A stretch of DNA of 64,000 nt. It comes from a virus (Duplodnaviria; Caudoviricetes). Both the position numbers and the translations under genes were made by a program. Each line of letters opens with the position of its first letter. Within the stretch, counting starts at the first letter, position 1. The notes under the pieces were generated by a model, which was not told where the DNA came from, made no database searches, and was given only the letters and a program-made list of their open reading frames with translations. Below, in pieces: positions 2,763 to 51,139 of this stretch. Location: the IMG/VR virus record IMGVR_UViG_3300032233_002382, positions 32,001 through 96,000 of that record. One strand, 5' to 3'.

Positions 2763-3019
2763 GATAAGTGCACTGTTGCTGCATAAGCCAGAAGGACTTC
2801 TCGATCTAATACTTCGAGAAGTCCCTCTGGCGTTCTATTATCCAGGAAGTCCATACGTTTGACGTACCCATCAACTTCGATCATGACTGATGCAGACATT
2901 TTGGTAACTAACACCCGGACATCATTGTACCTCAAGACCCATACGACATGAGGATCGTTCGGCATCCATTTCCTTGGATCAGATAGGGCGTTTCGCCATT
3001 TCTCAATCTCAGGATTCAT
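2759..3019 (-). CDS. hypothetical protein
   Basis: ORF coupled to upstream minus gene. Confidence 0.6.
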   Translation of the reverse strand: MNPEIEKWRNALSDPRKWMPNDPHVVWVLRYNDVRVLVTKMSASVMIEVDGYVKRMDFLDNRTPEGLLEVLDREVLLAYAATVHLS

Positions 3020-3278
3020 GTATCTTCCTCACTACGATAATTTGACTCAAGAATTCCACGACTTCTTTTAAATCGCGTGCGGACGGTACATCGTCAAAAT
3101 ATCTAGTTTCAAGGTCGTTCTGGATCCGGACTGAAACTGGGATTCCTTTCCGAGATTTCGCCCCTATCAAAACAGCCAATCCCGGTTTATCGAAGTATCT
3201 GTTAACGGGTAACTTCGTTGTGGTTCGTGTCTTCACGAGATTTTCGAGATCGGGAAATGGAACCATCAGACCTCCCAC
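3009..3278 (-). CDS. hypothetical protein with C-terminal tag (VRKIHES)
   Basis: ORF; C-terminal motif shared with many ORFs. Confidence 0.65.
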   Translation of the reverse strand: MGGLMVPFPDLENLVKTRTTTKLPVNRYFDKPGLAVLIGAKSRKGIPVSVRIQNDLETRYFDDVPSARDLKEVVEFLSQIIVVRKIHES

Positions 3279-3353
3279 AATACGACGAACGAGTCGGTAG
3301 ATTTCCGAGTGCCTTATGAAGTTCTTATGTGCTTCCGAGTGTAAGGAGAAACC

Positions 3354-3815
3354 ATGACCCCATCTGAACTGTCAGCTGCACTTCGCAAAATCGCCGCTAA
3401 GATCGACGCCTCTAAGAATCCGTCCCGAGAGCTCGTTATTTCAGACATCCAAAGAGTAGCTTCGAGACTGGTTACAGCGGCTTGGCAACCCCACAAAGCT
3501 AAGAATGTAGAAGAAGTAGACATGAGTAAGCTCCCAAGGCAGCTTTTAACCGGTACCACCATGGGAGACATAGTTCGTGGTGTTCTAAAGCACATGAAGG
3601 ACGAACAGCCTGTTAGAATGTCTCTTTCGGGCAAGGGTCCTCTTGGGACTGACATTTCAGTCGACATCGACGACGGTCAGATCACCATTAAGGTGCTTAA
3701 AGCTGAAAAGGATATGAAAGCTCCGACGGATGATTCGGTAGCTTTATCAGCTTCCATGCCTCTCAAGGATTGGGTCAAGGAAAATAAAGCCGCTATCGAA
3801 AAAGAAAAGCGGTAG
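3354..3815 (+). CDS. protein with long conserved N-terminal leader (putative virion protein)
   Basis: MTPSELSAALRKIAAKIDASKNPSRELVISD leader; AAGGAG SD. Confidence 0.75.
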   Translation: MTPSELSAALRKIAAKIDASKNPSRELVISDIQRVASRLVTAAWQPHKAKNVEEVDMSKLPRQLLTGTTMGDIVRGVLKHMKDEQPVRMSLSGKGPLGTDISVDIDDGQITIKVLKAEKDMKAPTDDSVALSASMPLKDWVKENKAAIEKEKR

Positions 3816-3837
3816 TTCACAAAACGTTCTACTAACT

Positions 3838-3871
3838 TTTGGGCCGCCTAGGGTAACCTAGGCGGCCCAAA
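3838..3871. terminator. inverted repeat / terminator
   Basis: tttgggccgcctagg-gtaa-cctaggcggcccaaa. Confidence 0.7.
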
Positions 3872-3989
3872 TCGTATTTATGGTGCATAATCAAGTTCAA
3901 AGTGCGATCGGAGATCGGCTGGCCACGGCGTCATGTGGATGGGACGGCGCCAGCCGCATTTAGCGGCGGCCGCTCCCTTGGAGCCGACC

Positions 3990-4421
3990 ATGACCCGCAA
4001 CAATCTCTCCACCCTCAACGACACCATGGCGGTGCTCTGCGAGGCGATCCCGCCCATCGTGGCTCAGCCGCCCCTCTATCCCTTCATCGGGGTCAAGGCC
4101 GTCAAGGCCCGCCTCGAGGCGGATCTGGTGGTCCAGCACGCCACCCTGGCGATGCTCTACCACCTGCAGACGGGTGATGAGCAGCAGGCCAGGGACACCC
4201 ACCACAAGAACCGTGCTGGCTTCATGAGCAGTGATGCGTTCACGGGCACCCGGTTGGCTGAGAAGCTGATTCTTGGTCTCGAGCTGGAGCCGGATGAGCT
4301 CGAGCGGGCCTCCCGCATTGCAACCAAGTACTCCAAGCAGCTCTCCATCCAGCTGCGGCGGGTGGCGATGCAGGAGAACCCCATGCTGGCGAGCTACGCC
4401 GTCACTTTCAGCATCAAGTAG
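3990..4421 (+). CDS. conserved phage hypothetical protein
   Basis: LAMLYHLQTGDEQ...NRAGF..SDA pattern resembles a recurrent phage domain; SD before MTRNN. Confidence 0.65.
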   Translation: MTRNNLSTLNDTMAVLCEAIPPIVAQPPLYPFIGVKAVKARLEADLVVQHATLAMLYHLQTGDEQQARDTHHKNRAGFMSSDAFTGTRLAEKLILGLELEPDELERASRIATKYSKQLSIQLRRVAMQENPMLASYAVTFSIK

Positions 4422-5403: not shown

Positions 5404-5492
5404 ATGAGTCCGGGAATCGGCCGCGCCGCGCGTCCTCTTTGTGGGCGCGCGGGCGGGCGCGTCCGACCCAAATTCCGCCCAGGAGCCGACCA

Positions 5493-6176
5493 ATGAGCTG
5501 CATGATCAAGATCGACGGTGTGAAGAAGACCAGCACCCAGAAGGCCCGTGGGTATCGCGGCAACACCCATCGCCCCTGGAACGACCAGCACCGCTCGGTG
5601 GAAGATCTCCTCGGTGTGGGATTCTCGTGCTACACCACCCCTATCATTGAGCACCTGAAGATCTGCAAGGAGTGCAATCTGAATCGGGTCATGTGGTTGC
5701 TCGAGAAGGAGAGCGTGTCCGCAAACTCCCACTCGGAGCGGATCGCAAGGACCTTCTTCGACGACCCCCGGACCACCCGCAAGCAGGCGACCAATACCTT
5801 GGTCAAGCTCCAGGGTTTGAATAGCCTCTTCTGGCTCGGAACCAAGCTTTCGAAGGAGGAATTCTTCGAGGCCATCCGGATGGCCTACCTCAAGGCGGCA
5901 ATGGATTCGGCAAGCTACCGGCAGCTCCCCCTGTTCAAGACGGTGATCCCTCGCAGCGCGCGGGTCGCTTGGGATGCCACCCGTCCGAACGCGGAGGTCG
6001 CGCTCCAGGGCCCTCACCCGTTCGGGCCGGATCGTTCACGATACACCAAAATGTCCGTTGAGAATCGGGAGCTTCTCACGAAGGCGGCCACTCTGATCAA
6101 CGCCAAGATGACGTTCCCGAATACCATGGATGAGCTCGAGCGCACCGCCATCGTCCATAAGATCCAGACTAGCTAG
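5493..6176 (+). CDS. hypothetical protein with C-terminal tag (VHKIQTS)
   Basis: AGGAG SD before ATG 5493; motif copy upstream. Confidence 0.75.
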   Translation: MSCMIKIDGVKKTSTQKARGYRGNTHRPWNDQHRSVEDLLGVGFSCYTTPIIEHLKICKECNLNRVMWLLEKESVSANSHSERIARTFFDDPRTTRKQATNTLVKLQGLNSLFWLGTKLSKEEFFEAIRMAYLKAAMDSASYRQLPLFKTVIPRSARVAWDATRPNAEVALQGPHPFGPDRSRYTKMSVENRELLTKAATLINAKMTFPNTMDELERTAIVHKIQTS

Positions 6177-10197: not shown

Positions 10198-10458
10198 ATG
10201 GAGAAACAATTAAAGATGTCTTACGGCGATCACCGGATGGTGGCTACCAAAACATTTGATCCCATGGCCGCAAATTTAACGATTCATCTTCATTGTGAAT
10301 CATGCAATAGTCACATCCAGTCGCGATATACCGAGTTTGAACAAGTCCTGAACCCTTCATTTTACGAAGACTTCTTCGAAAGCGCTTGCCGAATATTTCG
10401 AAAAACATTTCCTGAATCGTGTGATGAAACTAAAGTCAAACAAGTTCACGATTCTTGA
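10198..10458 (+). CDS. Zn-binding miniprotein with C-terminal tag
   Basis: CESC...CDETKVKQVHDS. Confidence 0.65.
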   Translation: MEKQLKMSYGDHRMVATKTFDPMAANLTIHLHCESCNSHIQSRYTEFEQVLNPSFYEDFFESACRIFRKTFPESCDETKVKQVHDS

Positions 10459-10555: not shown

Positions 10556-10891
10556 TTACTCATGATGCACGGAGTCAGCTATCCAGTATTGAGTCGCGAC
10601 CTGTACCATAGTCTCGACTACCTGATCCACTGTCGGATTCGGCGGACACTTGGCGAGACAGGGTGTTCTTGCTTGCCAGCCAACGTCCTGAGTGATTCCA
10701 AGATCGCCCATTAGAGCTAAGTCATCGCCTGCTTGGCTCGAGAGCATACTTCCGAACCTCAAGAGCCACGTGCTTCGATCATTCAAGTCATCTTCCGTTG
10801 CTTCCACATTAACTTCCCATACTTCAAAAAGGTCTCCGTGACGTTCATTGAACGCTTTGGAGACCTTTCCGATAAACTCCTGGGTCACCAC
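10556..10891 (-). CDS. hypothetical protein with tag (ADSVHHE)
   Basis: ORF, GGAG SD. Confidence 0.65.
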   Translation of the reverse strand: MVTQEFIGKVSKAFNERHGDLFEVWEVNVEATEDDLNDRSTWLLRFGSMLSSQAGDDLALMGDLGITQDVGWQARTPCLAKCPPNPTVDQVVETMVQVATQYWIADSVHHE

Positions 10892-11271: not shown

Positions 11272-11577
11272 ATGCCTAGAATCGCACATTCGAAACGCCC
11301 TGGTAGTCTTCGTCGCAAACATAACCGCGAGCGGTTGATTAAAGCGCGTATTTTATTGAAAGAGAAAGAAATTCATATACGCGAAGTCGAACAGCTCACC
11401 GGGATCGGAGTAGGACAAACAACCCTGATGATCCAGGGTAAAGCCAGAATGGATCAAGTTACTGTTATGCTAATAGAGACGATCGCGAAGTATCCATCAA
11501 CGATGCGTCAGATTGAGCTCATGTGGCAAGGCCATACAATTGATGAAGTTGCGGCCATCATGGTTCATGAATCATGA
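11272..11577 (+). CDS. putative HTH protein with tag (IMVHES)
   Basis: IREVEQLTGIGVGQTTLMIQG resembles an XRE HTH. Confidence 0.55.
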   Translation: MPRIAHSKRPGSLRRKHNRERLIKARILLKEKEIHIREVEQLTGIGVGQTTLMIQGKARMDQVTVMLIETIAKYPSTMRQIELMWQGHTIDEVAAIMVHES

Positions 11578-11804
11578 ACTTGCCATGCTGCGTGTTCGTC
11601 GCAGTCTAGAGCTGTGTGAATTCCATCATAAATTTCGATCCTTGCGTCATTCGGTGGCTTGTCGTTCGCCAACCAAGCAAGGCGTCTATCAATATCAGAA
11701 CTCGTGCCTCCGCACTTACGACAAACCCAGTAGTCGCCTAGTCGGAGTTTCCCGATTTCAGATGGTACTTCATGCGGTTTAATATAGAACCACAAATGAG
11801 CCAT
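11565..11804 (-). CDS. HxW-CxxC-C zinc-finger miniprotein
   Basis: MAHLW...WVCRKC...PP...CDEHAAWQVHDS. Confidence 0.75.
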   Translation of the reverse strand: MAHLWFYIKPHEVPSEIGKLRLGDYWVCRKCGGTSSDIDRRLAWLANDKPPNDARIEIYDGIHTALDCDEHAAWQVHDS

Positions 11805-11816
11805 TTCAAACAGTAC

Positions 11817-12182
11817 TTATGCTTCCATCATTTCTCTTACGATTTTCTCATTCTTAACGTCGTCACAAGTTAATATAACGCACCCAGTAGTTGCGGCTCC
11901 GAAGAGAATAGTTATGTACATTCCACCATGTGCCATAGATCCGCATTTAGTACACTGACCACCAAACCGGTTCGAACGCACCCAGTGTCCGTAGTTTTCC
12001 TTTGAATGCTTTAAATTCCATACGACATCATAAACGAATCGAATTGGAGTCCATATGCGCCAATAACGCATATATGTCTCTTTATAAACCATGGTGAAAA
12101 TTAATCCGAGGAATGGACCAATTATGAAGACAATCATGAAGATCTCTTGAGTCATTCGATATCCGTTTATATTGGTGTTCAC
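11817..12182 (-). CDS. membrane-anchored HxW-CxxC-C zinc-finger protein
   Basis: TM helix then GHW...CTKC...CDDVKNEKIVREMMEA. Confidence 0.7.
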   Translation of the reverse strand: MNTNINGYRMTQEIFMIVFIIGPFLGLIFTMVYKETYMRYWRIWTPIRFVYDVVWNLKHSKENYGHWVRSNRFGGQCTKCGSMAHGGMYITILFGAATTGCVILTCDDVKNEKIVREMMEA

Positions 12183-12428
12183 TCATGACTTATGGATCTG
12201 AGCTACCATGAGCTCATCGCATGTCATGTGGTTTCCTCCCCCGACCCATATTTTAGCTTCGTTTGGTGGTTTGTCTGAGACGAAATGGAACATCCAAGAT
12301 GCTATGTTCTTATGAGTTGCACTACACTTAGTACACTGCCATTCATTATGAGAACCCCTGTCGACTAATTCCCATTTATGGCTCATGAGCTCGTTACATA
12401 GCGAACAATGCAATCTCTGTCCAAACAT
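12183..12428 (-). CDS. HxW-CxxC-C zinc-finger miniprotein (start likely MSHKW)
   Basis: HKW...WQCTKC...PP...CDELMVAQIHKS. Confidence 0.75.
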   Translation of the reverse strand: MFGQRLHCSLCNELMSHKWELVDRGSHNEWQCTKCSATHKNIASWMFHFVSDKPPNEAKIWVGGGNHMTCDELMVAQIHKS

Positions 12429-12544
12429 TCTTTAGCTTCAATTCCATGCCGACATTTTTCCTGAACAAACAAATCATTCAGATTGTATGGCTCGTGAAGG
12501 AGATCTGCAATTGCATTTGCGATAAAGGCAAGTATGATTCTCAC
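12383..12544 (-). CDS. CxH-x6-C-x4-C miniprotein (53 aa, not in track)
   Basis: Manual translation ending KCRHGIEAKECLDRDCIVRYVTSS; paralog of 12740-13329 ORFs. Confidence 0.6.
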   Translation of the reverse strand: MRIILAFIANAIADLLHEPYNLNDLFVQEKCRHGIEAKECLDRDCIVRYVTSS

Positions 12545-12756
12545 GATTTCATCACCTGGGCTAACACTATCTGATGGCAGTGGTAGAATGCTGCCTTACC
12601 GTGTCCGTCTATGATCGTTATCTGAAATTCCGGGAGTGGTTTACCGTAGTGTTGACATACTTTATATCCGCAGTTCTGACATCGATACCAAATCTCGCCA
12701 TACTCACTTTCGTCATCAGTCAGCTGCCAGTCATGATGTTCAAGATCCATGAACAA
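12541..12756 (-). CDS. HxW-CxxC-C zinc-finger miniprotein
   Basis: HDW...YRCQNC...CHQIVLAQVMKS. Confidence 0.75.
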   Translation of the reverse strand: MFMDLEHHDWQLTDDESEYGEIWYRCQNCGYKVCQHYGKPLPEFQITIIDGHGKAAFYHCHQIVLAQVMKS

Positions 12757-12967
12757 ACGCTGCCTGACATTCGGGATCTTCGCAGTATCGAATATCCCGT
12801 GAATGTTTACATATGTTGTTCAGGGCCCTCATGATCCTAGCGTCTTCTTCTGCCTGTATTTGGAGCTTCATCTGATGTTCTAGATGCGACATAATATCAA
12901 CCGACACAGAATCGACCAAAGCATTCGATGTGGACTCCAGAACGATCTTTCTCAGTTTATTGATCAT
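12740..12967 (-). CDS. CxH-x6-C-x4-C miniprotein
   Basis: CKHSRDIRYCEDPECQAAFVHGS. Confidence 0.7.
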   Translation of the reverse strand: MINKLRKIVLESTSNALVDSVSVDIMSHLEHQMKLQIQAEEDARIMRALNNICKHSRDIRYCEDPECQAAFVHGS

Positions 12968-13175
12968 GAATCAACTCGACTATGCACGATTTATCGTCAC
13001 ATTTTTCTGCTTCTTTAAGATGCTTACATATCGAATACCTACCATATATGGATCCGAATAAAATCGATTTCGCATCATTTCGGATTAAATTAATTTCTTG
13101 TTCGAAGTGTTCATTCGTCGTGGATGTACTCAGCGACGCATTTAGGGTTATCGCATTCACCTGGTCTTTTATCAT
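12957..13175 (-). CDS. CxH-x6-C-x4-C miniprotein
   Basis: CKHLKEAEKCDDKSCIVELIHDQ. Confidence 0.7.
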   Translation of the reverse strand: MIKDQVNAITLNASLSTSTTNEHFEQEINLIRNDAKSILFGSIYGRYSICKHLKEAEKCDDKSCIVELIHDQ

Positions 13176-13329
13176 GTTCGCAGTTCCATTTCAGGCCGTA
13201 AATCAATGCGTCGTGTACGCTCGGTGGATACCTGTTCATATGTGCCTGACTATGCTTCTTAGCCATTTCAAGCCACTTCTTTTTGTCCTCTTCCGTCACT
13301 TCCGGGATCGGAAACCTGATCGAGGTCAT
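13111..13329 (-). CDS. CxH-x6-C-x4-C miniprotein
   Basis: CEHDKRPGECDNPKCVAEYIHDE. Confidence 0.7.
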   Translation of the reverse strand: MTSIRFPIPEVTEEDKKKWLEMAKKHSQAHMNRYPPSVHDALIYGLKWNCEHDKRPGECDNPKCVAEYIHDE

Positions 13330-15938: not shown

Positions 15939-16268
15939 CTAAGAGTTATGGACTTCATAGACGGGTCGGTTTTTGATCTTATTCGCGATCGTGATTCCGA
16001 TCTTCCGAAGGTTCATCATTGATTCAGGCCTGAAGCGAACTCGATAAAACATACGAGGGTGTTGCTCAACCGTCATCACGTAAACCGAGACTTCGCGTTC
16101 ATCAACGCCGATCGAGAGGTTGTAGGAGTGATCATCTTTCGTGATTAGGATGTCCCATCCCTCATGAGCCTCCGCTCGCATCTTAAACCTAGGACGGTTG
16201 AAGACGGAGCGGAGGCTCGTCGAGACGTGATCCCTTAGAGCGTAGAATGGCTCGCGACTATGCAGCAC
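15939..16268 (-). CDS. hypothetical protein with tag (VYEVHNS)
   Basis: ORF. Confidence 0.65.
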   Translation of the reverse strand: MLHSREPFYALRDHVSTSLRSVFNRPRFKMRAEAHEGWDILITKDDHSYNLSIGVDEREVSVYVMTVEQHPRMFYRVRFRPESMMNLRKIGITIANKIKNRPVYEVHNS

Positions 16269-35511: not shown

Positions 35512-35688
35512 CTCCTGGTAAGTCGACCACATTATCAACGAGGGAAGCGGCCGATTTCCGACATTCTTCAAAGTAAATACGGAAATCGGAGAGGTCGTCG
35601 CGTCTCTTTGGTGGATCAACCAAATCTCTAATCTAAAGAGCGCTGGAAGTGCGGCGCTGTTGCCGTCCTGTTGCCGGAGGTGCCACAT

Positions 35689-36315
35689 ATGGGGAAGTCG
35701 AGTTTTGAGAAGATTACTGACGCGCTTTACGAAACGGGCGAGTTCAAGTCGCTCATGATTGAGATAAAGGAACGAATCCAGTCGACCAAGATTACGCATT
35801 ATGCCGGTGCGTGCAATTCATATGACCCGAAGGCTACGCTGATGGTTCATATGGAGACCGAGTACTGCGGCAAGAAGAATGAGGCTGCCAGCAACGTCGG
35901 TAACATGAAGACGAATCCGTTCTGGACGATCTCCCGTGATCTATACCTGCCAGACTCATTCAAGGCGATTTTTAACGCGAATTTCGGTGTACTGAAGCCG
36001 AACTCGACAAAGAAATATCGCGTCCCGACATACAACGTGAAGCGAGACAAGGCGTACGAACACTTTGCATCCAATGCAAGGGGCAAAATTGCGGTTGAAT
36101 TCGACACGATGATTAAGGATAAGTCGAGTCAGATTCGAAACCAGGCACTTGAGTTCGACACGACTCCCATGGCGGATCAGATTAAGCAGGACACTCGAGA
36201 TCGGTTCACGATCGACTCGATTAAGGAGACTCTACTCCGCTTCAAGGACGCCAGGCCTGAGATCTTGAAGGCTGCCATGGATGAGTTCGTGTGTCATGCT
36301 ATCATGGAAAACTAG
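35689..36315 (+). CDS. hypothetical protein with tag (CHAIMEN)
   Basis: Two tandem motif copies, GGAGG SD. Confidence 0.75.
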   Translation: MGKSSFEKITDALYETGEFKSLMIEIKERIQSTKITHYAGACNSYDPKATLMVHMETEYCGKKNEAASNVGNMKTNPFWTISRDLYLPDSFKAIFNANFGVLKPNSTKKYRVPTYNVKRDKAYEHFASNARGKIAVEFDTMIKDKSSQIRNQALEFDTTPMADQIKQDTRDRFTIDSIKETLLRFKDARPEILKAAMDEFVCHAIMEN

Positions 36316-36482
36316 TTCGGCAAGGAGTGGCTTACCCGCAATAGGGCGGATAATCCACTGTAAGTTGATAGGACTCCCATCCCACGCAAAGAGCGCCGGA
36401 AGTCGAGGCGGCGGCGCGTCGGTTGGGTGGGCGGCGCGGTGGGTGGTCCACGGCGGTCCGACCCCTTGAGGAGCGAGTAATC

Positions 36483-37583
36483 ATGCTGACTGGCATCGTT
36501 GAGATCCCGAACGACACGTACATGGACGTCCTGCGATTCAATATCCGCACGGGCGGCAATATGCTCGCCTTCGGCCAGGCCGGTATCGGCAAGACCGAGA
36601 TGGCCCAGCAGGCGGCGGTTAATGAGGGATTCGGGGTCTGCTACCTGAACCTCTCCGTCCTCGAGGCCCCCGATCTTCTTGGCCTCCCCCTCATCACCGA
36701 CGACAAGAGCGTGGATTACGCCCGACCGCGCTTCCTCCCGATCGAGGGGAAGGTCGACAAGCCGGTGGTCCTGCTCGTGGATGAGCTGGATAAGGCCAAG
36801 CCCGAGCTTCAGAATCCCCTCCTCGAGCTGTTCCAGAGCCACTCGCTCAACGGCACCAAGCTGGCGATCCAGGCCATCATCGCCACGGGTAACCTCCCCG
36901 ACGAGGGTGCCCACTCGCAGCCGGTCTCCCATGCCCTCACGAACCGGTGCAAGGTCTACAAGCTGGTGAGCGCCTTCGAGCCTTGGCGTCAGTGGGCGCA
37001 GGATTCGAATCTGAACGCATTCATCATCGGCTTCCTGAGCAAGAATCAGGAGTTCCTGAGCCGTCCTCCGGTCGAGGGTGACCCCACGGCTTACTGCCGA
37101 CCCTCTCCTCGCGCGTGGTCCCAGGCTGCCCGTGAGCTGGACCAGACCACCACCAAGGATACGGTCGACTTCCAGACCCTCCTCGTCGCTGGTCGGGTGG
37201 GTAGTGAGGCCGCAGCCAAGTTCCGCGTCTGGCTGGAGCACTACCGCATCCTCGAGCCCATCATCGATCGTCTGGTGGCGGAGGGTACCCTGCCGAATAT
37301 GGGGGAGATGACCATCGACCGCCAGCTGGTCTGCGCGATTGGTGCTGCAAGCGCGGTGGCCCAGGAGTGCCGCAAGGACGTGAAGGATAAGGCGAAGCAT
37401 CAGGAGGCCGTGAACAAGACGGCTAAGAATGTCTTCACCTGGCTCCAGAAGCTCCCCTCCGAGTTCCAGATTGCCGCAGTGAAGAGCACTCTGAACATGG
37501 AGATCATCACGAAGTACCAGCTGACGAAGATCCCTGAGGTCATGAACACCTACCTCAGCGTCCGGAAGGCCATGAAGGACTAG
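36483..37583 (+). CDS. MoxR-like AAA+ ATPase
   Basis: GQAGIGKT Walker A, LLVDE Walker B, IIATGN, ALTNR. Confidence 0.9.
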   Translation: MLTGIVEIPNDTYMDVLRFNIRTGGNMLAFGQAGIGKTEMAQQAAVNEGFGVCYLNLSVLEAPDLLGLPLITDDKSVDYARPRFLPIEGKVDKPVVLLVDELDKAKPELQNPLLELFQSHSLNGTKLAIQAIIATGNLPDEGAHSQPVSHALTNRCKVYKLVSAFEPWRQWAQDSNLNAFIIGFLSKNQEFLSRPPVEGDPTAYCRPSPRAWSQAARELDQTTTKDTVDFQTLLVAGRVGSEAAAKFRVWLEHYRILEPIIDRLVAEGTLPNMGEMTIDRQLVCAIGAASAVAQECRKDVKDKAKHQEAVNKTAKNVFTWLQKLPSEFQIAAVKSTLNMEIITKYQLTKIPEVMNTYLSVRKAMKD

Positions 37584-38052: not shown

Positions 38053-38088
38053 AGGTTTTCTCCCTGCAATACGTGGGTAATAAGTGAT

Positions 38089-38673: not shown

Positions 38674-38782
38674 ATACTAATGTCCCAAAAAGAAATTAAA
38701 TACCGCAAAGCACAGCGGAAGTCGGCGCGTCGGCGCGTCTATTTGGTGGGCGGATTGGCCGCCCCCGTATCGGAGGATTGAG

Positions 38783-40267
38783 ATGGACTTTACCGCATCT
38801 ATTACGCGTCTGAGCGACCCTAAGAACGTTGCGACCAGCCCCCGACAGCTCAAGGATCTGAACGAAAAGATCTCGAGCACCATGACCCGTCTCTTCCGAC
38901 AGCCTGAGAACGGAGGCAATCCGTTCCTCTTCGCGCTCGCTGGCCCCAAGCCGCACGAGCTGGCTCGTGACGGGATCGATACCGCAGCGACCGATGGCAA
39001 GAAGTTCTACTGGAATCCGGACTGGCTCGAGCAGATGGATGCCGACCAAGTGGCGACCATCATGTCGCACGAGTCCTACCATGTCCTCTTCTTCCATTGC
39101 TCTCCGGAGCGGGCGGGTGGTCTGAACCCGCAGGTCTGGAACATCGCCGTCGACTACATCGTGAACGGGGTGATTATGGCCGATCACGAGAAGTCGGGTC
39201 GTTCGAAGAAGCAGCCTAAGTTGTTCTACGGGGCCATGGGCACCCCGATCTCGCTCCAGCAGTACATCGAGTGGATTGACGGCAAGCGTGACTCGCTTCC
39301 GGAGCCTGGGTGCTTCGCGGACGAGACGACTCACGGTCGAAGCCCTGAGTCGATCTACGACCAGATCCAGAAGGCCTTCATGAACAGCCCCCGTCGCTGC
39401 AAGGAGAATGCAGGTGGTTGCGGGGCGCTCTCCATCGACCCCAAGACCGGCATTTCGACGCTGGGTCCTGGCCCCTACGAGCCGGATTGCTGCCAGAAGT
39501 GCGGTGCCAAGCCGAACCAGGGGTTTGGGCCAGGGTCGCTCGACTCCCATCTCCCCTCCCAGCAGACCAAGGATGAGACCCTTGGAGATATGATGAGGGC
39601 GGCTGAGCAGACCCGTGCCATGGGTCGCGGGGATGTGCCAGGGGATATTGAGGCAGCCCTGGGTCGCCTCAAGAAGCCGGAGCTGTCTGCGCGGGATATC
39701 ATCCGTGCAGCCATCGCCCAGAAGCGACTGGATGCCGGTAATAACAATGATTGGAAGCGATTCCGTCGTCGTCCAGCATACATCTACGAGAAGGATGTGG
39801 AGGGTAACTACAAGCCCACCCACCGGCTCTACACGCCCAAGAAGCACGACTTCAAGCCGAAGTGGGTCGCGCTGATGGATACCTCTGGCTCGATGAGCGA
39901 TGATGATATCGCCAACGGGGTGAAGGAGCTGAAGATTGTGGCGGATATTGCCGAGGGTACTATCGTCCCCTGCGACACCCGCCCCTTCTGGGATAAGGCC
40001 ACCAAGGTCACGAAGGCCACCGATATCACGCGGACCAAGGTGGCTGGTCGTGGAGGCACCGTCTTCGAGCAGTTCTTCCGTGAGCTTCCGAAGCAGGCTT
40101 GCGGTCAGGAAGTGGACCTTGTAATCATCATCACCGACGGCGACTGTGATCAGGTTCCGGTGAATCTGATGCCCAAGGGGGCCGATACCCTGTGGATCAT
40201 CACGAACAAGCGGGAGTTTAAGCCGAATTTCGGACGGGTTTGCCAGCTCCGTCCCTCCCACGCGTAA
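38783..40267 (+). CDS. DUF2201-type metallopeptidase-VWA protein
   Basis: TAATDG, HESYH (HExxH), WNIAVDYIVN; C-terminal VWA DTSGSMS...GRGGT.F. Confidence 0.9.
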   Translation: MDFTASITRLSDPKNVATSPRQLKDLNEKISSTMTRLFRQPENGGNPFLFALAGPKPHELARDGIDTAATDGKKFYWNPDWLEQMDADQVATIMSHESYHVLFFHCSPERAGGLNPQVWNIAVDYIVNGVIMADHEKSGRSKKQPKLFYGAMGTPISLQQYIEWIDGKRDSLPEPGCFADETTHGRSPESIYDQIQKAFMNSPRRCKENAGGCGALSIDPKTGISTLGPGPYEPDCCQKCGAKPNQGFGPGSLDSHLPSQQTKDETLGDMMRAAEQTRAMGRGDVPGDIEAALGRLKKPELSARDIIRAAIAQKRLDAGNNNDWKRFRRRPAYIYEKDVEGNYKPTHRLYTPKKHDFKPKWVALMDTSGSMSDDDIANGVKELKIVADIAEGTIVPCDTRPFWDKATKVTKATDITRTKVAGRGGTVFEQFFRELPKQACGQEVDLVIIITDGDCDQVPVNLMPKGADTLWIITNKREFKPNFGRVCQLRPSHA

Positions 40268-40333: not shown

Positions 40334-40645
40334 ATGCCGAAAGATACTAAGAAGTACACGGAAAAGGAACGGGCAGCCGCGATTCAGAAGATGTATCGGT
40401 TCTTGACGGACAAGCATCAGAACCATAGTTGGGTGTTCCGTCCAGGCAGAGACCCGATTTTCACTCGGACTAAGTCACCGCAGGATCTCTACAATCTCAT
40501 CCAGATGTTCTTCTACCATGAGCATGAGATTAAAGCACTTTCTAAGTGGGCCAATACCCACAAGCGGGCCTTTAAAGAGTTGAAGCCTGAGGACTATAAG
40601 GCAGTCCAGGATCTATTTGCCGTCGAAGCCGTTCACGAGTCTTAA
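40334..40645 (+). CDS. hypothetical protein with tag (VEAVHES)
   Basis: ORF followed by hairpin, no overlapping downstream gene. Confidence 0.7.
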   Translation: MPKDTKKYTEKERAAAIQKMYRFLTDKHQNHSWVFRPGRDPIFTRTKSPQDLYNLIQMFFYHEHEIKALSKWANTHKRAFKELKPEDYKAVQDLFAVEAVHES

Positions 40646-41510: not shown

Positions 41511-42278
41511 ATGCTACTGAGTGAGATGGACGCATCTGATGCCGCCAAAGAAGTGCTCAAGTCTGAGAAAATTCATAAGCTTGGGAGCGAATCTGATCAA
41601 GAGCATGAAGAGAAGGTGGCTCAGATCCACAACGATGTCGCAAGGATTATCGAATTTATTCGGAATGCGAAGATTACTTCCACAGAAATCAAAGCAAATC
41701 GTGGTTCAAAGTATGGATCACTGATTTCGAATCAGTATCCTGGTGTCTACATCCATCAAATCATCACGCTATCTGATGGAAAGCACAAGTACTCAGTAAA
41801 TAATCCCGAATTAATCGCAAAGACTGACTATGCGGACCAGAACAAGATAGTTCCATCAAGTTTCTTCGGGATTTGGGGTGATAAAAGAGTATACCTGAGC
41901 GACCGCTCCCTGTCTCGAATGACCAAAGCCGCTCCGAATCTTGTTAATCTATATCGAAGTGCTCTTGAGATTCGTTTGGGGTTTACGCAGGAAATTGCCG
42001 AACAAGCCGCAGACAAGTATGTGAATAAGAACCAAGGGCGCGCAAAGGCTCAGATTATTAAGAAGATGGGTGGCTTCCTTGCCGAATGCAATCTCAAAGA
42101 TGAGGACCCGGAGTTCCTTCTCCAGATCATGAAGTTCATCTCTCGAGACAACTTCTGGGAGATGAAGAATTTCTTCAATTACTGTCGACGAAATCGTGGT
42201 GATATCAATTTTCTGACACCCGATGAAGTGATCCAGGCTCAAAATCTTGCTAAGGCGATTGAAATCCAGAAGTCCTAA
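41511..42278 (+). CDS. hypothetical protein with tag (IEIQKS)
   Basis: Motif copy upstream. Confidence 0.75.
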   Translation: MLLSEMDASDAAKEVLKSEKIHKLGSESDQEHEEKVAQIHNDVARIIEFIRNAKITSTEIKANRGSKYGSLISNQYPGVYIHQIITLSDGKHKYSVNNPELIAKTDYADQNKIVPSSFFGIWGDKRVYLSDRSLSRMTKAAPNLVNLYRSALEIRLGFTQEIAEQAADKYVNKNQGRAKAQIIKKMGGFLAECNLKDEDPEFLLQIMKFISRDNFWEMKNFFNYCRRNRGDINFLTPDEVIQAQNLAKAIEIQKS

Positions 42279-42349: not shown

Positions 42350-42676
42350 ATGGCTCGCACGAATGAATTCACGAAGCTGGCTGAGGTTGTCGAGGTGATG
42401 GAGGTTCCAAGTGGGTGTTTTAACAAGATGCGAATCTGCATTACTGGTCATCTGGGTAAGCCTCGACATGAGATCGTCCGTCTTATTGAGCAGGGTGGTG
42501 GTGTTTTTCATGACACTGTGAAGTACGACACCACCCACCTTCTGACGAACGCTGATTGGACGACGATCAATGGGAAGACTTCGTCCAAATACGACAAGGC
42601 CAAGAAGTATGGATGCAAGTTCATCAGCGAGGCTGATTTCTTCTCGATGATGACATCGGCTGAGGCAGCCGCATGA
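42350..42676 (+). CDS. stand-alone BRCT domain protein
   Basis: ICITGHLGKPRHEI..LIEQGGG....V..DTTHLL....SSK..KAKKYGCKFISE.DF. Confidence 0.85.
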   Translation: MARTNEFTKLAEVVEVMEVPSGCFNKMRICITGHLGKPRHEIVRLIEQGGGVFHDTVKYDTTHLLTNADWTTINGKTSSKYDKAKKYGCKFISEADFFSMMTSAEAAA

Positions 42677-42963
42677 ACTTCTACATTGGCGTGATCTCTG
42701 AAGCCGACAACTTCGATTTAAACATCAAGTACCTTGATACGATTTATACGTCGAGGGAAGCGAACATCGCCAAGAAATACTACGACTCCCTGAATGAAAA
42801 AGATAAGAAGTGGTTTGAACGGTTATCTTTCGACAGTATGATGTGGTGGAGTCGGGCGTTCGTTGATGGAATTAAGAAGACCCCGAAGGAATTGAAAAAG
42901 GAACGGGGTGACTTGATGAGAGCAAAGAGGGAGGCCAAACGTGCCGCACAAATTCGCAGTTGA
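42673..42963 (+). CDS. hypothetical protein
   Basis: ATGA overlap. Confidence 0.65.
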   Translation: MNFYIGVISEADNFDLNIKYLDTIYTSREANIAKKYYDSLNEKDKKWFERLSFDSMMWWSRAFVDGIKKTPKELKKERGDLMRAKREAKRAAQIRS

Positions 42964-43645
42964 TAATGGCTCGACCGACACTGAAATCGAACAAGCGATG
43001 GACCATATCCGGCATACGATCGAACTAGGCCGTCAAGCCGAATTAGCATTAATCAATATTGAGAGACAGGGATATCACAACGGCGACATCACGGTAGTTG
43101 TTGATCCGAATACTAAGACCTATCACGGTGCTCTTAGGAATCTTCGCCTAGCCAAGTACATTGAGCCGACTCGTGATAAGGCTCCATCTTTTGCCGACCT
43201 AAGTGTGACTTGCGGGAGAATGATGGAAGATTCTCACGGCGGTCATTATTTCAAGAGCTGCGAAGTGACCTTAAGCGGAACTCGAGTGAATCAGATTGAG
43301 GGAAAGCTCGTGAACGAGCCATTTTCCATCATCATGGGGAATCTGAGGCTTAAGAAGACCGGACTTTCGATCGAGCTGAAGCATGAACAGTACTACAACC
43401 GATACGACGTAGCTCAGGTATACAAGAAGCCGACGGGATCTTCCATGTCGTCTTATAGAGAGATTGCCAAGTGCGTTGCGGATCATGTGGTGTCGATCGC
43501 AAATAGTTATCATGATCCAGAATTGCAGATTACGCACGATCTTCGGATGAAAGCCCGAGAGTGGTTGGTTTCGGAAGGTGTCATTCAGCGTCTCTCCACG
43601 AGTCTTTTCGAGCAAGCCAAGATTGTTGAGGTGATGAATGCGTAG
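42941..43645 (+). CDS. hypothetical protein with tag (IVEVMNA)
   Basis: ORF. Confidence 0.7.
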   Translation: MPHKFAVDNGSTDTEIEQAMDHIRHTIELGRQAELALINIERQGYHNGDITVVVDPNTKTYHGALRNLRLAKYIEPTRDKAPSFADLSVTCGRMMEDSHGGHYFKSCEVTLSGTRVNQIEGKLVNEPFSIIMGNLRLKKTGLSIELKHEQYYNRYDVAQVYKKPTGSSMSSYREIAKCVADHVVSIANSYHDPELQITHDLRMKAREWLVSEGVIQRLSTSLFEQAKIVEVMNA

Positions 43646-44217: not shown

Positions 44218-44838
44218 ATGGCGAATCCGGTTCTTCTTGCGAAGTTTACAAATCCTGGTCCGGTTGCGAATGCGTTCATTAAGGAATGGAACGAGTATTT
44301 TAAGGGTTCTAAGTACGTCGGGCATGGTGCTAGTAAGACCGGTACCACCGCTTATGCGAAATTCTCCATTCCGGCTGTGAATAAGTTCAAGCTTTGTAAG
44401 GTTTCGATCCGAGTCCGCTATCATAGCAAACCGAGCGGAGTGTCTATCACTTCAGATGTGTGGGAGGCCTGGGCCAAACTCCGTGTCGAGAAGATCACGG
44501 ACGGGGCGAGAAGTCGGAACATGTTCTACGATTGGACACGCAATTACACGGGAGAGTCCTCTCTATCTAAGCTGTTCAATGAGACCGGTGCCAATGGACA
44601 CCAAGATCTATATGAAGCATTCTTTACGGCAGTCGGATTCATGCCGGAGTTAGATAAGGCTGCAAAGGATGTCGCCTCATCATCAACCGTCGAAGAGAAA
44701 AAGAAGATTCACGAAGTCAAGAGCGCGCTTTTTGACATTCGTGCACCTCTGCGTACTCTCCTCCGACACGGCATTGAAACTGAACAGTTGCATGAGATGA
44801 TCAATCACGAAATCGTGGATCTAATCACCGATGGATGA
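44218..44838 (+). CDS. hypothetical protein with tag-like end (VDLITDG)
   Basis: Motif copy plus GGAGG SD. Confidence 0.75.
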   Translation: MANPVLLAKFTNPGPVANAFIKEWNEYFKGSKYVGHGASKTGTTAYAKFSIPAVNKFKLCKVSIRVRYHSKPSGVSITSDVWEAWAKLRVEKITDGARSRNMFYDWTRNYTGESSLSKLFNETGANGHQDLYEAFFTAVGFMPELDKAAKDVASSSTVEEKKKIHEVKSALFDIRAPLRTLLRHGIETEQLHEMINHEIVDLITDG

Positions 44839-45184
44839 AGCCAAGATTAAGGAAGTCATCACCGAGTTCGAAGGTTACCCAAAAGAATATAAGGATCAGA
44901 TGCTACAGAGGTGGTGGGAAATTAGCCCATATCTGGACAATAAGTCCGACATGCTAGCCAAGACTTTATCTTGGATTGCGTACGCCTTTAACCATAAAGA
45001 AGAGTATTGGTGGTCTAGGGAAGCAATTTGGTTTCTGCACAAGAATGATCCTGAAGTATCCGTGTATGCTCTGGTTGATCAGTATGGGTATGATTGGAAG
45101 AACACAGTAATGCCGCAATTAAAGCCAGTGTTTGAAGTGATTGCTCACCCCAGCTTACTTGTCGGTGGAATTCACGGTTCCTGA
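44831..45184 (+). CDS. hypothetical protein with tag (VGGIHGS)
   Basis: Coupled ORF. Confidence 0.65.
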   Translation: MDEAKIKEVITEFEGYPKEYKDQMLQRWWEISPYLDNKSDMLAKTLSWIAYAFNHKEEYWWSREAIWFLHKNDPEVSVYALVDQYGYDWKNTVMPQLKPVFEVIAHPSLLVGGIHGS

Positions 45185-46407: not shown

Positions 46408-46950
46408 ATGGTTCCCATTTACATTCTAAGATCTCGAAAGAGGGTCAATATGGCAGAGGATGGGTACTGGGCAAAGCAATTCCGTGATGGGGCACCCGAG
46501 GCAGTTGCGAAGTCATGGTTGAGCTCTGGCAATCATCAGAATCGAGTCTTGCACCACATCGGTCAAATAGGGATCGATAGACTAGTAGAAAAGACCCAGG
46601 GATCTTGGAAGCGTGAAAATCTGGCTAAAGCAGTGATCGAAGACATGAAGTTGGTACCAGAGATCATCAGGGATATTCAAAGCAGTAGCAATTTTGTCAT
46701 GGGGCCTATTTTATCGGGCCTGTCGGTTAAAGATCAGATCAGCAAGAATGATATTCAAGCCAAGATGTGGCTTGACAAGAGCCCAGACCATGTGATTTTT
46801 TATGGTCCATATAGCGAGACGTTAGAGACATTTCTTATTTCTGAAGTCGGTAAGGTCATTTCGAATTCTGAATGGTTTAAAAAGAACATCAAGTCGATTC
46901 GAAGTGCAGCAGCCAAGATCAATGCAGTTAAGAAGGTAATGAACCAGTAA
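46408..46950 (+). CDS. hypothetical protein with tag (VKKVMNQ)
   Basis: ORF; start likely MAEDG. Confidence 0.7.
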   Translation: MVPIYILRSRKRVNMAEDGYWAKQFRDGAPEAVAKSWLSSGNHQNRVLHHIGQIGIDRLVEKTQGSWKRENLAKAVIEDMKLVPEIIRDIQSSSNFVMGPILSGLSVKDQISKNDIQAKMWLDKSPDHVIFYGPYSETLETFLISEVGKVISNSEWFKKNIKSIRSAAAKINAVKKVMNQ

Positions 46951-48850: not shown

Positions 48851-48868
48851 GAAACAAGAGAAATAAGT

Positions 48869-48910
48869 AAAGTTTGGGGACTTCTCCTTCGGGGGAAGTC
48901 CCCAAACTTT
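48869..48910. terminator. hairpin
   Basis: aaagtttggggacttc / gaagtccccaaacttt. Confidence 0.7.
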
Positions 48911-48921
48911 TATAAGCATAT

Positions 48922-49347
48922 ATGAGTATGGATTTATTTGAAAAAATTGCTAAAAGAATCGCTTCTAACTATAAGCGGCAGCGATTTACATGTAAGGGAA
49001 ATCGTTGGAAAGTGCCGGATCTGCTTAACTTCATCAAAGAGCAGGAGATAGAGCTCGTGATGTATCCGGTCGCTCCATTATATGAAAGAGTGTCAACCTC
49101 TCCTGAAGGATACTTCGACGAGCCCTTTGAGAGCCCCGAGTTTATCGAAAGAGCCATGAAGTCCGATTACAACACCTATCCGGTCGTACTCTTTGATCTT
49201 CCAGATAAAATCCGGATCGCTGACGGAAATCACCGGGTGTATAAGGCGTTCAAGGATGGGGCAGAATTCATCCCAGCATATGTATTATCTGAAGAGCAGG
49301 TATGGCAGGCCCCGCACGCTCCCGTAGAAGAATCTGCTTCAGATTAG
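48922..49347 (+). CDS. ParB/Srx-like N-terminal domain protein with short leader
   Basis: YPVVL......IADGNHRVYKAF..G...IPAYV; MDLFEKIAKRIAS leader. Confidence 0.75.
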   Translation: MSMDLFEKIAKRIASNYKRQRFTCKGNRWKVPDLLNFIKEQEIELVMYPVAPLYERVSTSPEGYFDEPFESPEFIERAMKSDYNTYPVVLFDLPDKIRIADGNHRVYKAFKDGAEFIPAYVLSEEQVWQAPHAPVEESASD

Positions 49348-49476
49348 GTAATTGTTTAAAAACCAATAATTATTTTGAAAATCACCCGAATGACTCAGGG
49401 CTGGGACATGTCTTGGGTTGTATTATGACTTAACGGAAATTTCCTGAAAACTTAGTTTCTTTTATGGGAGAATCAT

Positions 49477-50775
49477 ATGATCGAAAGATACGCGCAGCCT
49501 GAGATGACTGAAATCTTCTCGGACCGGACTAAGTTAGAGCTCATGATCTCGGTTGAGAAGGCTGCCGCCTCGGCGATGGCTTACAAGGGCCTAATCCCGG
49601 TTGATGCCGAGATTGCTATCAATAACTACAAGGTCGATTTCGACGATGCGCTCCAAAGAATTCCTGAGATCGAAAAAGAGACTCGGCACGACGTCCTGGC
49701 GGTTTTGAAGTACCTAGAGTCGAAGATCGGTCCTGAGGGAAGGTACCTTCACCGAGGGATGACGAGCTCTGATGTCCAGGATACCGTTCTAGCCATACAA
49801 CTCGTCCGGGCCGGGCGGATTATCTTGAAAGAGTCCAAGATTTTGAGGGATTTCCTTAAAGAAACTGCGATCAAGTACAAGAAGACTCCGTGCGTTGGAA
49901 GATCCCACGGAATGCACGCTGAGGTAACGACGTTTGGACTCAAGGTCCTCAGCTGGCATGGCTATGTTGCCAGGGCCCTCAAATTATTTGAAACGGCTCT
50001 GTCTGAAGTCGGTTATGGGAAGATATCGGGCGCCGTCGGAACTTATGCCCATCTGAGCCCTGAAGTCGAGGAATCAGCTTTATGGCGAATGGGTTTAAAG
50101 TGCCAATACCCTTCAACGCAAATTGTGCCGAGGGATCGGATAGCTAATTTGATGGCGGCGATGGCCTCGATGGGAAATGCGATTGAAGTAATTGCCCTGG
50201 AAATCCGCCATTTATCTCGAACGGAAGTTTCAGAGGTCGCAGAATCTTTTGCAAAGGGACAAATGGGCTCGAGTGCGATGCCCCACAAGAAGAATCCGAT
50301 TGTTTCGGAACAGATGTGTGGTTTAAATAGAATCCTTAAAGGATATCTAATACCGGCCTTTGAAGACGTTCCCCTCTGGCATGAAAGAGATATCTCCCAC
50401 TCCTCTGTAGAGAGATTGATTGTTCCAGACGCATTCCATATCTTGAAATACATGATCTCAAAGACAACTGGGATGGTTTTGAATTTAGTCGTGAATTCCG
50501 AAAGGATGGAGTCTAACCTAAGGATGACTCTTGGAAATATCTTTTCGGGATCGTTATTACTTAAAGTGTCCGATCGGGTCGGGCGGGACGAGGCCTACAC
50601 GTACGTTCAGCAGTTAGTGCATACCGAGTCGACCCATTCGCTTAATTTCCGAGTGAGGAAAGACGAGAAAATTATGGGGTGGCTGACCAAGGAGGAGATT
50701 GAAGAGGTGTTCAGTATATCTCACCATCTAAGACATGTCGATGAAATATTTGACCGAGCTCTGAGAGATGGCTAA
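49477..50775 (+). CDS. purB: adenylosuccinate lyase
   Basis: MIERY, TRHDV, H.GMTSSDV.DT, GRSHGMHAE.TTFG, GSSAMPHKKNP, HERDISHSSVER. Confidence 0.97.
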   Translation: MIERYAQPEMTEIFSDRTKLELMISVEKAAASAMAYKGLIPVDAEIAINNYKVDFDDALQRIPEIEKETRHDVLAVLKYLESKIGPEGRYLHRGMTSSDVQDTVLAIQLVRAGRIILKESKILRDFLKETAIKYKKTPCVGRSHGMHAEVTTFGLKVLSWHGYVARALKLFETALSEVGYGKISGAVGTYAHLSPEVEESALWRMGLKCQYPSTQIVPRDRIANLMAAMASMGNAIEVIALEIRHLSRTEVSEVAESFAKGQMGSSAMPHKKNPIVSEQMCGLNRILKGYLIPAFEDVPLWHERDISHSSVERLIVPDAFHILKYMISKTTGMVLNLVVNSERMESNLRMTLGNIFSGSLLLKVSDRVGRDEAYTYVQQLVHTESTHSLNFRVRKDEKIMGWLTKEEIEEVFSISHHLRHVDEIFDRALRDG

Positions 50776-51139
50776 ACCAAACATGCTTAAAATGAGTTGC
50801 ACGATTCAAGATGGGTGGGGTTATGTCGAATTTTCCAAGCGGGCCGCATATGAGACCCAAGAGCTCATAAGAGATTGTATCCACGAGCAATCTAAGTTCG
50901 GCTATGGGATGGCGACCGTTCACCGTCTTTCCCGTATGTATATGGAACTGGATAAATCCACGAACCTCGAAATGCTGTCGAGGGAAGACTTGGATTGTCT
51001 CAGGAAGTGCCTTCCGACTGTTGAAATTGAAAACCAAATGAACTGGTTCTATCGGGCGAATTTCTTTAAGCCAGATCAGGGGAAGTTCAAAGAGGCCAGT
51101 CAGATTTGCAAATCAATGTTCTCGATTCATGAGGAATAA
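50768..51139 (+). CDS. hypothetical protein with tag-like end (FSIHEE)
   Basis: Coupled ORF. Confidence 0.65.
   Translation: MAKPNMLKMSCTIQDGWGYVEFSKRAAYETQELIRDCIHEQSKFGYGMATVHRLSRMYMELDKSTNLEMLSREDLDCLRKCLPTVEIENQMNWFYRANFFKPDQGKFKEASQICKSMFSIHEE

Follow-up and report, generated by a model that had tools for sequence, protein, structure and literature searches.

A shared C-terminal ending on small accessory proteins of a huge freshwater phage and its relatives

The tagged genes and their common ending

The window analyzed here is a stretch of 64,000 nucleotides, bases 32001-96000 of one 307,777-bp virus record (46% GC) from an uncultured freshwater phage, for which CheckV estimates a completeness of 72%. 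Many of its genes, on both strands, encode proteins that finish with the same short peptide, hereafter the tag, which in its simplest form reads [VILMA][HMQ]x[SAETQDNG]-stop. A scan with a position-specific scoring matrix (PSSM), run over all open reading frames (ORFs) of at least 40 residues (aa), called as genes or not, finds 49 tagged ORFs in the genome, in line with the figure of about 45 given in an initial annotation of this DNA; 42 of them lie in the window, between 2759 and 59633, and six more form a second array at genome 259.0-260.3 kb.

The enrichment over background that the initial annotation had proposed to check is strong. Among 92 genes of our own crude gene call between 2 and 52 kb of the window, 30 carry the terminal pattern, whereas its rate of occurrence inside proteins would predict 1.12 (P ~3e-34); the rest of the genome has it at the end of 7 of 263 genes. 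When the matrix is scanned over every protein position, the 28 best matches are all C-terminal and internal matches score far below terminal ones. The earlier description of a free C-terminal motif whose register is fixed, and which occurs on genes of either strand, is upheld, and the motif belongs to the protein level. Among 1,450 genes from 52 unrelated phage loci, three end with the strict pattern. A non-circular matrix, derived from 96 external proteins of the zinc-ribbon family described below (family A) and from no others, gave the same picture: 21-23 of 344 non-family genes exceed the 99.9th percentile of internal scores at their C-terminus, where 0.34 would be expected. The tag was not seen on the ligase, the TilS-like protein, the dCMP deaminase, the superoxide dismutase, the PurB-like protein, the genes of the glycosyltransferase region or the larger enzymes, so that its reported absence from housekeeping enzymes stands for the ligase, TilS-like, PurB-like and glycosyltransferase-region genes.

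Counted from the carboxyl end, the tag is the close of an amphipathic C-terminal segment of about 13 residues. The segment has an acidic cap, [DE]-E, at -11/-10; positions -8/-7 and -4 are hydrophobic, and H, M or Q occupies -3. Position -2 is free, though mostly E, D or N, and the last residue is small, being S, A or E in most tags. All twelve peptides cited earlier as examples are present in the ORFs named for them, each directly followed by a stop; the positions cited with them are the low coordinates of those ORFs, apart from one slip, 5493, for the ORF at 5439-6176 on the plus strand. A T4-type prohead-protease site, psi-x-E, was considered and dropped for want of conservation at -2. Away from protein ends, the highest PSSM score belongs to the 153-aa ORF at 4942-5403, which has a tag-like EMIVREIQEE followed by five further residues, PGDDN; this segment may be a decayed or masked tag.

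Once the last 14 residues are removed, the tagged proteins show almost no BLAST similarity among themselves. An alignment of the small ones nevertheless recovers one family, family A, a His-Cys3 zinc ribbon of 60-90 aa with the pattern M-x-H-x-W, W-x-C-x-x-C, P-x-P, T-C-[ED]-E-x5-[VI]-[HMQ]-x-S. A hidden Markov model (HMM) of this family matches 24 ORFs of the genome at E < 1e-3, and 25 of the 49 tagged ORFs do not match it even at E = 10. The earlier claim that the carriers have no other similarity is thus true for about half of them: these 25 have no detectable similarity to the family or to each other, and about 24 belong to a single family. A profile search of 1.84 billion representative proteins gave 465 hits, and the best 150 of these include 101 full-length proteins of 57-125 aa, 97 of which have their last Cys placed exactly 12 residues from the C-terminus. 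Among these 101 external members, position -4 is V in 65 and I in 33, position -3 is H in 44, M in 32 and Q in 12, and position -1 is S in 64. The ligands H, C, C, C are invariant in 100 family-A sequences. With four invariant ligands already present, and with M or Q able to substitute, the His at -3 was dropped as a candidate zinc ligand.

The AlphaFold model of family A, built from 100 sequences (predicted local distance difference test, pLDDT, 94), has three strands and a C-terminal helix, which is predicted to run from the last Cys, the last zinc ligand, to the penultimate residue, with -12 to -2 confident. Fold searches (family-A and 211-aa carrier models against the PDB, and the family-A model against AFDB clusters) returned no significant match. 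Pfam and PHROGs searches found no entry matching family A and almost nothing on the tagged proteins overall. Family A is a new, large and widespread family of small zinc ribbons that is not annotated, and the analysis defines it with at least 465 clusters.

The tagged ORFs begin on the minus strand with 2759..3019 (86 aa, ending TVHLS) and 3009..3278 (89 aa, KIHES), neither of family A, the second of which overlaps the start of the next gene by 11 nt. Two ORFs on the plus strand, 5439..6176 (245 aa, KIQTS; not family A) and the Cys-rich 10198..10458 (86 aa, QVHDS spelled with CAC and TCT, no gene downstream), precede 10556..10891 on the minus strand (111 aa, SVHHE; not family A). The 3′ end of 11272..11577 (plus strand, 101 aa, MVHES) overlaps by 13 nt the convergent tagged ORF 11565..11804 (minus strand), a family-A zinc ribbon of 79 aa ending QVHDS. 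This convergent overlap, at 11563-11579, is the near-palindrome TCATGAATCATGA, whose two strands encode H-E-S-stop and H-D-S-stop. Also on the minus strand are 11817..12182 (121 aa, with a hydrophobic N-terminus and a CxxC, EMMEA), the family-A ORFs 12183..12428 (QIHKS) and 12541..12756 (QVMKS), and three proteins of a C-x4-C type, 12740..12967 (75 aa, FVHGS), 12957..13175 (72 aa, LIHDQ) and 13111..13329 (72 aa, YIHDE). The same strand carries 15939..16268 (109 aa, EVHNS), with no gene downstream; 18397..18822 (141 aa, NVMGA), whose homolog in the related contig L018 (25% identity) ends SVMTE; 19705..19992 (95 aa, DIHET); 21813..22220 (135 aa), with a weaker tag, WVMKQ, and a distant homolog in contig L015 ending FVHSQ, an M/H exchange; 22127..22435 (102 aa, KVMNT); and 23181..23525 (114 aa, KVMEA), which is followed by a promoter-like motif and no gene start.

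A tandem array of family-A genes joined by 11-nt overlaps occupies 24341-26745, and a similar one lies at 3032-4264 of L001. Within the window array, all on the minus strand, the family-A ORFs are 24341..24580 (ending KINGS), 24522..24797 (QVHAS, with an 11-nt dual-coding junction), 24758..24952 (SVHRS), 24953..25258 (NVMES), 25131..25346 (NIQDA), 25330..25539 (DVHES), 25529..25738 (SVHES, whose 11-nt junction CATGAATCATAA also codes the MNHNW of the next gene), 25728..25949 (LIHES, modelled with alignment A3 at pLDDT 94), 25912..26103 (NLHAS), 26093..26335 (EVHAS) and 26473..26745 (HVQES, its ortholog in contig L002 ending HIHAS, a Q/H exchange); among them lies 26262..26489 (75 aa, SVQSS), which is not family A. 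Three further family-A ORFs on this strand are 27178..27426 (NLQNE), 27423..27683, with the variant end LHVNQA, and 28313..28555 (NVQDE). The metagenomic two-domain proteins P0028, P0030 and P0031 look like in-frame fusions at such an 11-nt array junction.

Two larger carriers on the minus strand are 33946..34398 (150 aa, DMMSA), whose register is kept in homologs at 32-80% identity, and 34472..35107 (211 aa, MVMEE), in which the most conserved part is the last 30 aa. In the AlphaFold2 model of the 211-aa carrier, the tag falls within a loose tail of six residues after the last helix, and the final three residues have a pLDDT below 50 despite lying in the most conserved part. The remaining tagged ORFs are on the plus strand: 35671..36315 (214 aa, AIMEN), 40334..40645 (103 aa, AVHES spelled with CAC and TCT, a convergent gene next), 41511..42278 (255 aa, EIQKS, with L018 homologs at about 20% identity ending EVQSS and EVMST), 42941..43645 (234 aa, EVMNA, its L018 homolog at 29% identity ending SVMTA), 44831..45184 (117 aa, GIHGS), 46408..46950 (180 aa, KVMNQ), 50768..51139 (123 aa, SIHEE) and 59403..59633 (76 aa), with a weak tag, TLHNE.

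A promoter-like word, GGA[AG][AG]-N14-CGT[CT]-N7-TG (typically GGAAGTCGG...CGTC...TG), occurs in 48 copies oriented with the genes, all but one of them at genome 14-79 kb; in the window they span 209-47409. The word is probably the mark of a transcription class specific to the phage, with the tagged genes among its members. The phage also encodes an Fe/Mn superoxide dismutase, at 38089-38673 of the window.

Selection on the peptide and its lineage-specific versions

One explanation lies at the level of DNA: the end of the gene would be conserved for translational coupling, through a Shine-Dalgarno sequence and an overlapping start, or as a boundary at which small cassettes recombine, with the peptide a by-product. 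The start codon of a downstream ORF falls within the last 20 nt of 26 of the 49 tags, and about 14 share an exact 11-nt overlap, CATGAnTCATrA, that encodes H-x-S-stop together with M-x-H of the next gene; at an array junction, one gene's tag and the following gene's first zinc ligand (M-x-H-x-W) are encoded by shared DNA. Within this overlapping class of 26 tags, CAT encodes His 15 times and CAC twice, and TCA is the predominant Ser codon. The L018 contig offers further support, as the codons at -5/-4 spell GAGGT in 11 of 17 coupled genes, providing a ribosome-binding site that sits 9 nt before the overlapping ATGA start.

Other observations run against a signal in the nucleotides. The initial annotation would have counted it a refutation if the enrichment vanished once genes whose stop overlaps a downstream start were set aside; after that removal the enrichment remains strong. 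The 23 tags without a start within 20 nt use CAC and CAT equally (6:6), six Ser codons, and all Val and Ile codons. In L018, 11 tags are followed by gaps of 19-212 nt; 10 of them still have V-M, and GAG stands at -5 in only three. Non-tagged coupled genes use other codons for the ribosome-binding site. The M at -3 is in frame and unable to start the next gene. Between ortholog pairs, changes at -4 were synonymous in seven cases and within the residue class in four, versus two out of class, while position -2 had changed in 12 of 22 and is therefore free. The mixed codons away from a nearby start, the V-M kept across gaps and the synonymous changes at -4 indicate selection on the peptide. The C-terminal register was conserved in 26 of 29 tagged ortholog pairs versus 19 of 42 untagged ones of the same median identity (P = 1.4e-4). 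The idea that the ending is an artefact of Shine-Dalgarno sequences or start codons was dropped on the codon usage, the L018 gaps and the ortholog changes, and the nucleotide-level explanation is largely refuted; we regard it as very improbable.

The ending and its register extend across a clade of huge phages. Tag and exact end are kept in the contig L002, with 75-93% DNA identity, and in L010-L012, with proteins 50-65% identical; Q/H exchanges at -3 distinguish the window from these close relatives, and M/H exchanges appear in the more distant L015. Orthologs at 20-65% identity retain both the tag and its exact register. In L018, which is part of a 382-kb contig and has its ligase, AAA+, DUF6915, DUF2201, BRCT and DUF6011 genes in the same order as the window, 28 of 47 genes, from several unrelated small families, end [E]-V-M-x-[STAE], and homologs of window proteins at about 20-30% identity retain the tag. 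Within 20 kb, L014, from another contig, contains 21 tagged ORFs; almost all end V-M-E-S, and about half fall outside family A. Searches of GenBank phages, near-DNA and protein, with the window DNA and two tagged proteins gave no matches, and a DUF2201 protein query found only Vibrio and Acinetobacter phages at about 25% identity, so that no cultured relative was found; scans of IMG/VR and JGI data with single tagged proteins and alignment A2 added nothing new.

More distant relatives were reached through a DUF2201 protein search, which retrieved 80 IMG/VR loci (L020-L099). Loci whose DUF2201 protein is 44-70% identical have the same tag, some loci at 32-46% have other shared endings (WIIxxII[EKN], KLLVLK, LIF[TS] or psi-V-E-[SG]), and 52 loci at 28% or less have no shared ending. 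The over-represented endings KLLVLK, DKYxLL[IVM], KIxxLIF[TS], psi-V-E-[SG] and K-x-L-L-x-F-[SLW] were noted among L042, L045, L026 and G005.

Three records, G002, G004 and G005, were examined in full. The complete relative G002 (377 kb) carries the tag on 87 of its 470 genes, versus 4.6 expected, with the same logo as the window; only three of the 87 are family A, and without their last 14 aa the tagged proteins fall into 79 BLAST clusters. In G004 (459 kb), 124 of 707 genes end [VI]-I-x, comprising 53 of family A (Cys at -11) and 71 others. Family A is absent from G005 (452 kb), which has a weaker ending of its own, K-x-L-L-x-F-x, and was on account of that ending dropped as a tag-free control. 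Across related huge phages, 17-18% of the genes carry the tag. The 459-kb phage G004 has a tandem array of at least 28 zinc-ribbon paralogs (L100, G004:41000-49000), all ending C-[DN]-[ED]-[WF]-I-I-R-E-I-I-[EK], one residue shorter than in the window lineage. A head-protein homolog (phrog_2522) at genome 263152-264039 (L169) is 94% identical between G000 and G002, in contrast to most of their shared proteins, which are about 50% identical, and to DUF2201 at 44%; this similarity may reflect mosaic exchange.

Each lineage has its own version of the ending: H>M>Q at -3 (VHxS) in the window, VMES in L014, EVMxS in L018, VVES in L026 and IIE in G004. Unrelated proteins of one genome share its version, as a shared co-evolving reader predicts.

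A possible reader of the ending

We favor a reading, to which we give a probability of roughly 40%, in which the ending is recognized by a phage-encoded partner shared among the tagged proteins. The tag would be a protein-level address, required exactly at the free carboxyl end and borne by two kinds of carrier, the family-A zinc ribbons and many unrelated, mostly small orphans of the same non-structural region. One phage-encoded partner would recognize the terminal carboxylate together with the psi-[HMQ] pair and handle all tagged proteins as a group, whether by holding, sorting, remodelling or clipping them. The versions peculiar to each phage lineage would follow from co-evolution between such a partner and the tag. 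The data show the motif, its register, protein-level selection on it, and its distribution and versions over the clade; the existence of a reader, its identity and the fate of the tagged proteins we infer. The single, still hypothetical hub postulated by the initial annotation gains indirect support from register conservation and from the lineage-shared versions.

A candidate for this partner lies inside the tagged block. It consists of an AAA+ ATPase (36423..37583, plus strand; phrog_1297, MoxR-like by context) and a protein (38783..40267, plus strand) that joins a DUF2201_N zincin-like peptidase domain (HESYH) to a vWA-like domain bearing the MIDAS motif DTSGS. In the relatives L010 and L012 the zincin-vWA protein is 91% identical and the ATPase 94-96%, versus 50-65% for flanking orthologs. 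The HExxH and DxSxS MIDAS motifs are invariant in 71 DUF2201 homologs, and the MIDAS of a vWA domain is a type of metal site that captures extended peptides or carboxylates. All jumbo phages retrieved via DUF2201 at 29% identity or more and examined in full have their own terminal tag. G000 shares only 16 BLAST-detectable genes with G004 and 19 with G005, and the five genes common to all four genomes encode the AAA+/zincin-vWA pair, a GMP-reductase-like enzyme, a head protein and the portal. A complex prediction combining the DUF2201/vWA protein (alignment A4) with residues 150-210 of the 211-aa carrier (A2), Zn and Mg scored 0.01, which speaks neither for binding nor against it. We take the pair as our best guess for the tag's partner, a tentative one that is rather doubtful. 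A stand-alone BRCT protein of 108 aa (42350..42676, plus strand), conserved in L018 and L019, is a second and weaker candidate reader. The AMKD ending of the ATPase itself was dropped as a possible tag, since its L017 homolog extends 12 residues further. Parts of the 36423-40267 stretch are found, in small shares, in many freshwater and riverine sequencing runs; no RNA run was among those listed.

A more general proposal, which we consider somewhat less likely still, is that a group of huge phages possesses a C-terminal “postcode” system, with lineage codes (VHxS, VMxS, VVES, IIE, LLxFS) on up to a fifth of the proteome, mostly on unrelated small accessory proteins, read by a co-evolving MoxR-like AAA+/vWA-zincin pair that would sort, load or process them.

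Several observations weigh against a shared phage-encoded partner, or against this pair in that role. The link to the pair through shared genes is biased, since G002, G004, G005 and L020-L099 were all retrieved by the DUF2201 search. The pair is also far more widespread than the tag, with 52 loci at 28% DUF2201 identity or less lacking a shared ending (3/1,450 genes), and only 3 of 46 genes are tagged in L019, where DUF2201 is 51% identical. The role previously proposed for the MoxR AAA+/vWA pair is virion assembly (Iyer et al., 2021; PMC7824862). Rare two-domain family-A fusions retain the motif internally. In family A the tag is modelled as an ordered helix of the fold (pLDDT 94) and could therefore be purely structural there, and the V/I and M/I differences between lineages follow genome GC (46-51% vs 37-40%), so that the versions could be compositional drift on a generic hydrophobic helix face.

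These last points lead to an explanation that needs no reader, in which the ending is the last turn of an amphipathic helix that packs on the protein's own body, inherited or recombined from the zinc-ribbon family and trimmed by compaction. The single confident helix from -12 to -2 in the family-A model, the exact distance from Cys to end in nearly all external members (97/101) and the hydrophobic spacing of -8/-7/-4/-3, which would form a packing face, are all as expected if the ending is structural, as is the way versions follow GC content. It is harder to see why packing should give 79 unrelated clusters in one genome the same last four residues, the acidic cap at -11/-10 and the same exact end, or why unrelated proteins of one genome should change version together. 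Moreover, the psi-M pair of the 211-aa carrier lies beyond the last predicted helix, in a low-confidence tail, and is nevertheless invariant, while untagged genes do not retain their C-terminal register. Overall, we consider a purely structural origin unlikely.

The tag could instead be read by a host machine, as a C-terminal degron through which a host AAA+ protease or adaptor clears, times or trans-targets the tagged proteins, or as a docking signal for a host hub. A strict free C-terminus and a small last residue do resemble C-terminal degrons, as known in general from ssrA and ClpX, and the tagged genes are small orphans in a non-structural region. No PDZ domain, ClpP or S41 peptidase was found in the phage record, itself an estimated 72% complete, so that a classical reader of C-termini would come from the host; lineage versions could then track different hosts. 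LAA-type degrons differ from the tag, however, which mostly has an acidic or polar residue at -2 and, across lineages, may end in S, A, E, K or T. The family-A tag, moreover, is predicted to be a packed helix rather than a loose tail. A host reader is, in our estimate, as unlikely as a purely structural origin.

Alternatively, the tags may bind one another, their amphipathic ends driving co-assembly into a common body such as a bundle, scaffold or condensate. The amphipathic helix of the tag, broadly hydrophobic on one face and acidic at its cap, would suit such a function, the pattern has some resemblance, by analogy, to the encapsulation peptides of bacterial microcompartments, and change in step within a lineage would be expected if tags recognize each other. 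But the hydrophobic face of family A is predicted to pack on the protein's own sheet, and helix bundling leaves the need for an exact free end unexplained. We think co-assembly decidedly unlikely, more so than either a structural origin or a host reader.

If a single reader did serve a fifth of a huge-phage proteome through a four-residue code, this would be a new organizing principle for phage accessory proteins, with a role that could lie in timing, localization, packaging or turnover. It would also give a handle on hundreds of orphan genes, since the tag would mark one functional class, and would suggest a job for the widespread and unexplained AAA+/vWA-peptidase pair of jumbo phages. The array junctions provide a clear case in which 11 nt code both the functional end of one protein and the predicted zinc-binding start of the next.

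Comparison with known systems

Literature word searches found no description of such a shared C-terminal tag, although several known systems resemble it in part. Poxvirus ankyrin/PRANC proteins, to which the tagged proteins had been likened, similarly have N-terminal modules that vary and a C-terminal element that does not, and each viral genome encodes many of them. However, PRANC is a folded Skp1-binding domain of about 30-40 aa, whereas the tag is 4-13 residues long and terminal, and tagged proteins gave no Pfam hit. To our knowledge, bacteria have no Skp1-type partner.

The other precedents offered in the initial annotation were ssrA-like degrons, T4 clamp-binding tails and PDZ ligands. 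The ssrA tag (read by ClpX/SspB) and the clamp tails of T4 gp43, gp55 and gp33 share with the present system a fixed free C-terminus read by one hub. None of the three precedents fits the sequence of the tag. Where ssrA has the nonpolar end LAA, the last three residues here are [HMQ]-x-[SAE]; the T4-type tails have a different motif, and nothing like [ST]-L-D-F-L-[FY] appears in the logo of the last 14 positions; and PDZ ligands need a hydrophobic last residue, whereas the tag ends in S, A or E and no PDZ domain was found in the phage record. The carriers are also far more numerous than those of ssrA or the clamp tails, and the phage record revealed no link to a protease or a clamp.

Short terminal peptides that direct unrelated proteins to one assembly are known from encapsulin cargo loading, from the encapsulation peptides of microcompartments and from the capsid targeting sequence of T4. 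Encapsulation peptides of microcompartments are amphipathic helices too. The T4 signal differs in being N-terminal and cleaved, and, unlike in cargo-peptide systems, the tagged genes sit with replication and nucleotide-metabolism genes rather than virion genes; no shell or encapsulin gene turned up, although no search for shell families was made.

The candidate pair itself has been described before. In “group 2.2” jumbo phages, a MoxR AAA+ ATPase occurs with a vWA domain fused to an N-terminal metallopeptidase (Iyer et al., 2021; PMC7824862), and the gene pair and domain architecture are the same here. That account proposes virion assembly and structural-protein processing, unlike the role considered above, and does not mention a shared C-terminal ending on other proteins (“C-terminal tail” gives no match in its text).

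The closest parallels are the FxSxx-COOH/vWA-MoxR systems, in which zincin peptidases occur with small, fast-evolving proteins that have conserved C-terminal peptides and are coupled to vWA-MoxR modules, and for which the vWA MIDAS is stated to bind extended peptides (Kaur, Burroughs, Iyer, Aravind, 2020; PMC7159879). The differences are considerable. The tag, psi-[HMQ]-x-[SAE], is not an FxSxx, RxD, acidic-run or FtsH-associated type; each genome has tens to more than 100 carriers here, rather than one precursor; the setting is a phage, not a cellular conflict system; and no radical-SAM/SPASM or VMAP partner turned up in the window, in which no search was aimed at them. The carriers are folded proteins rather than precursors of a released peptide, and the family-A tag, modelled as part of a compact fold, argues against simple peptide release. 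Nevertheless, in both cases the carriers are small and fast-diverging with only the C-terminal peptide conserved, as illustrated by homologs of window proteins that keep the tag at about 20-30% identity and by the 79 clusters of G002, and here too a zincin (HESYH)-vWA (DTSGS) fusion adjoins an AAA+ ATPase amid the tagged genes.

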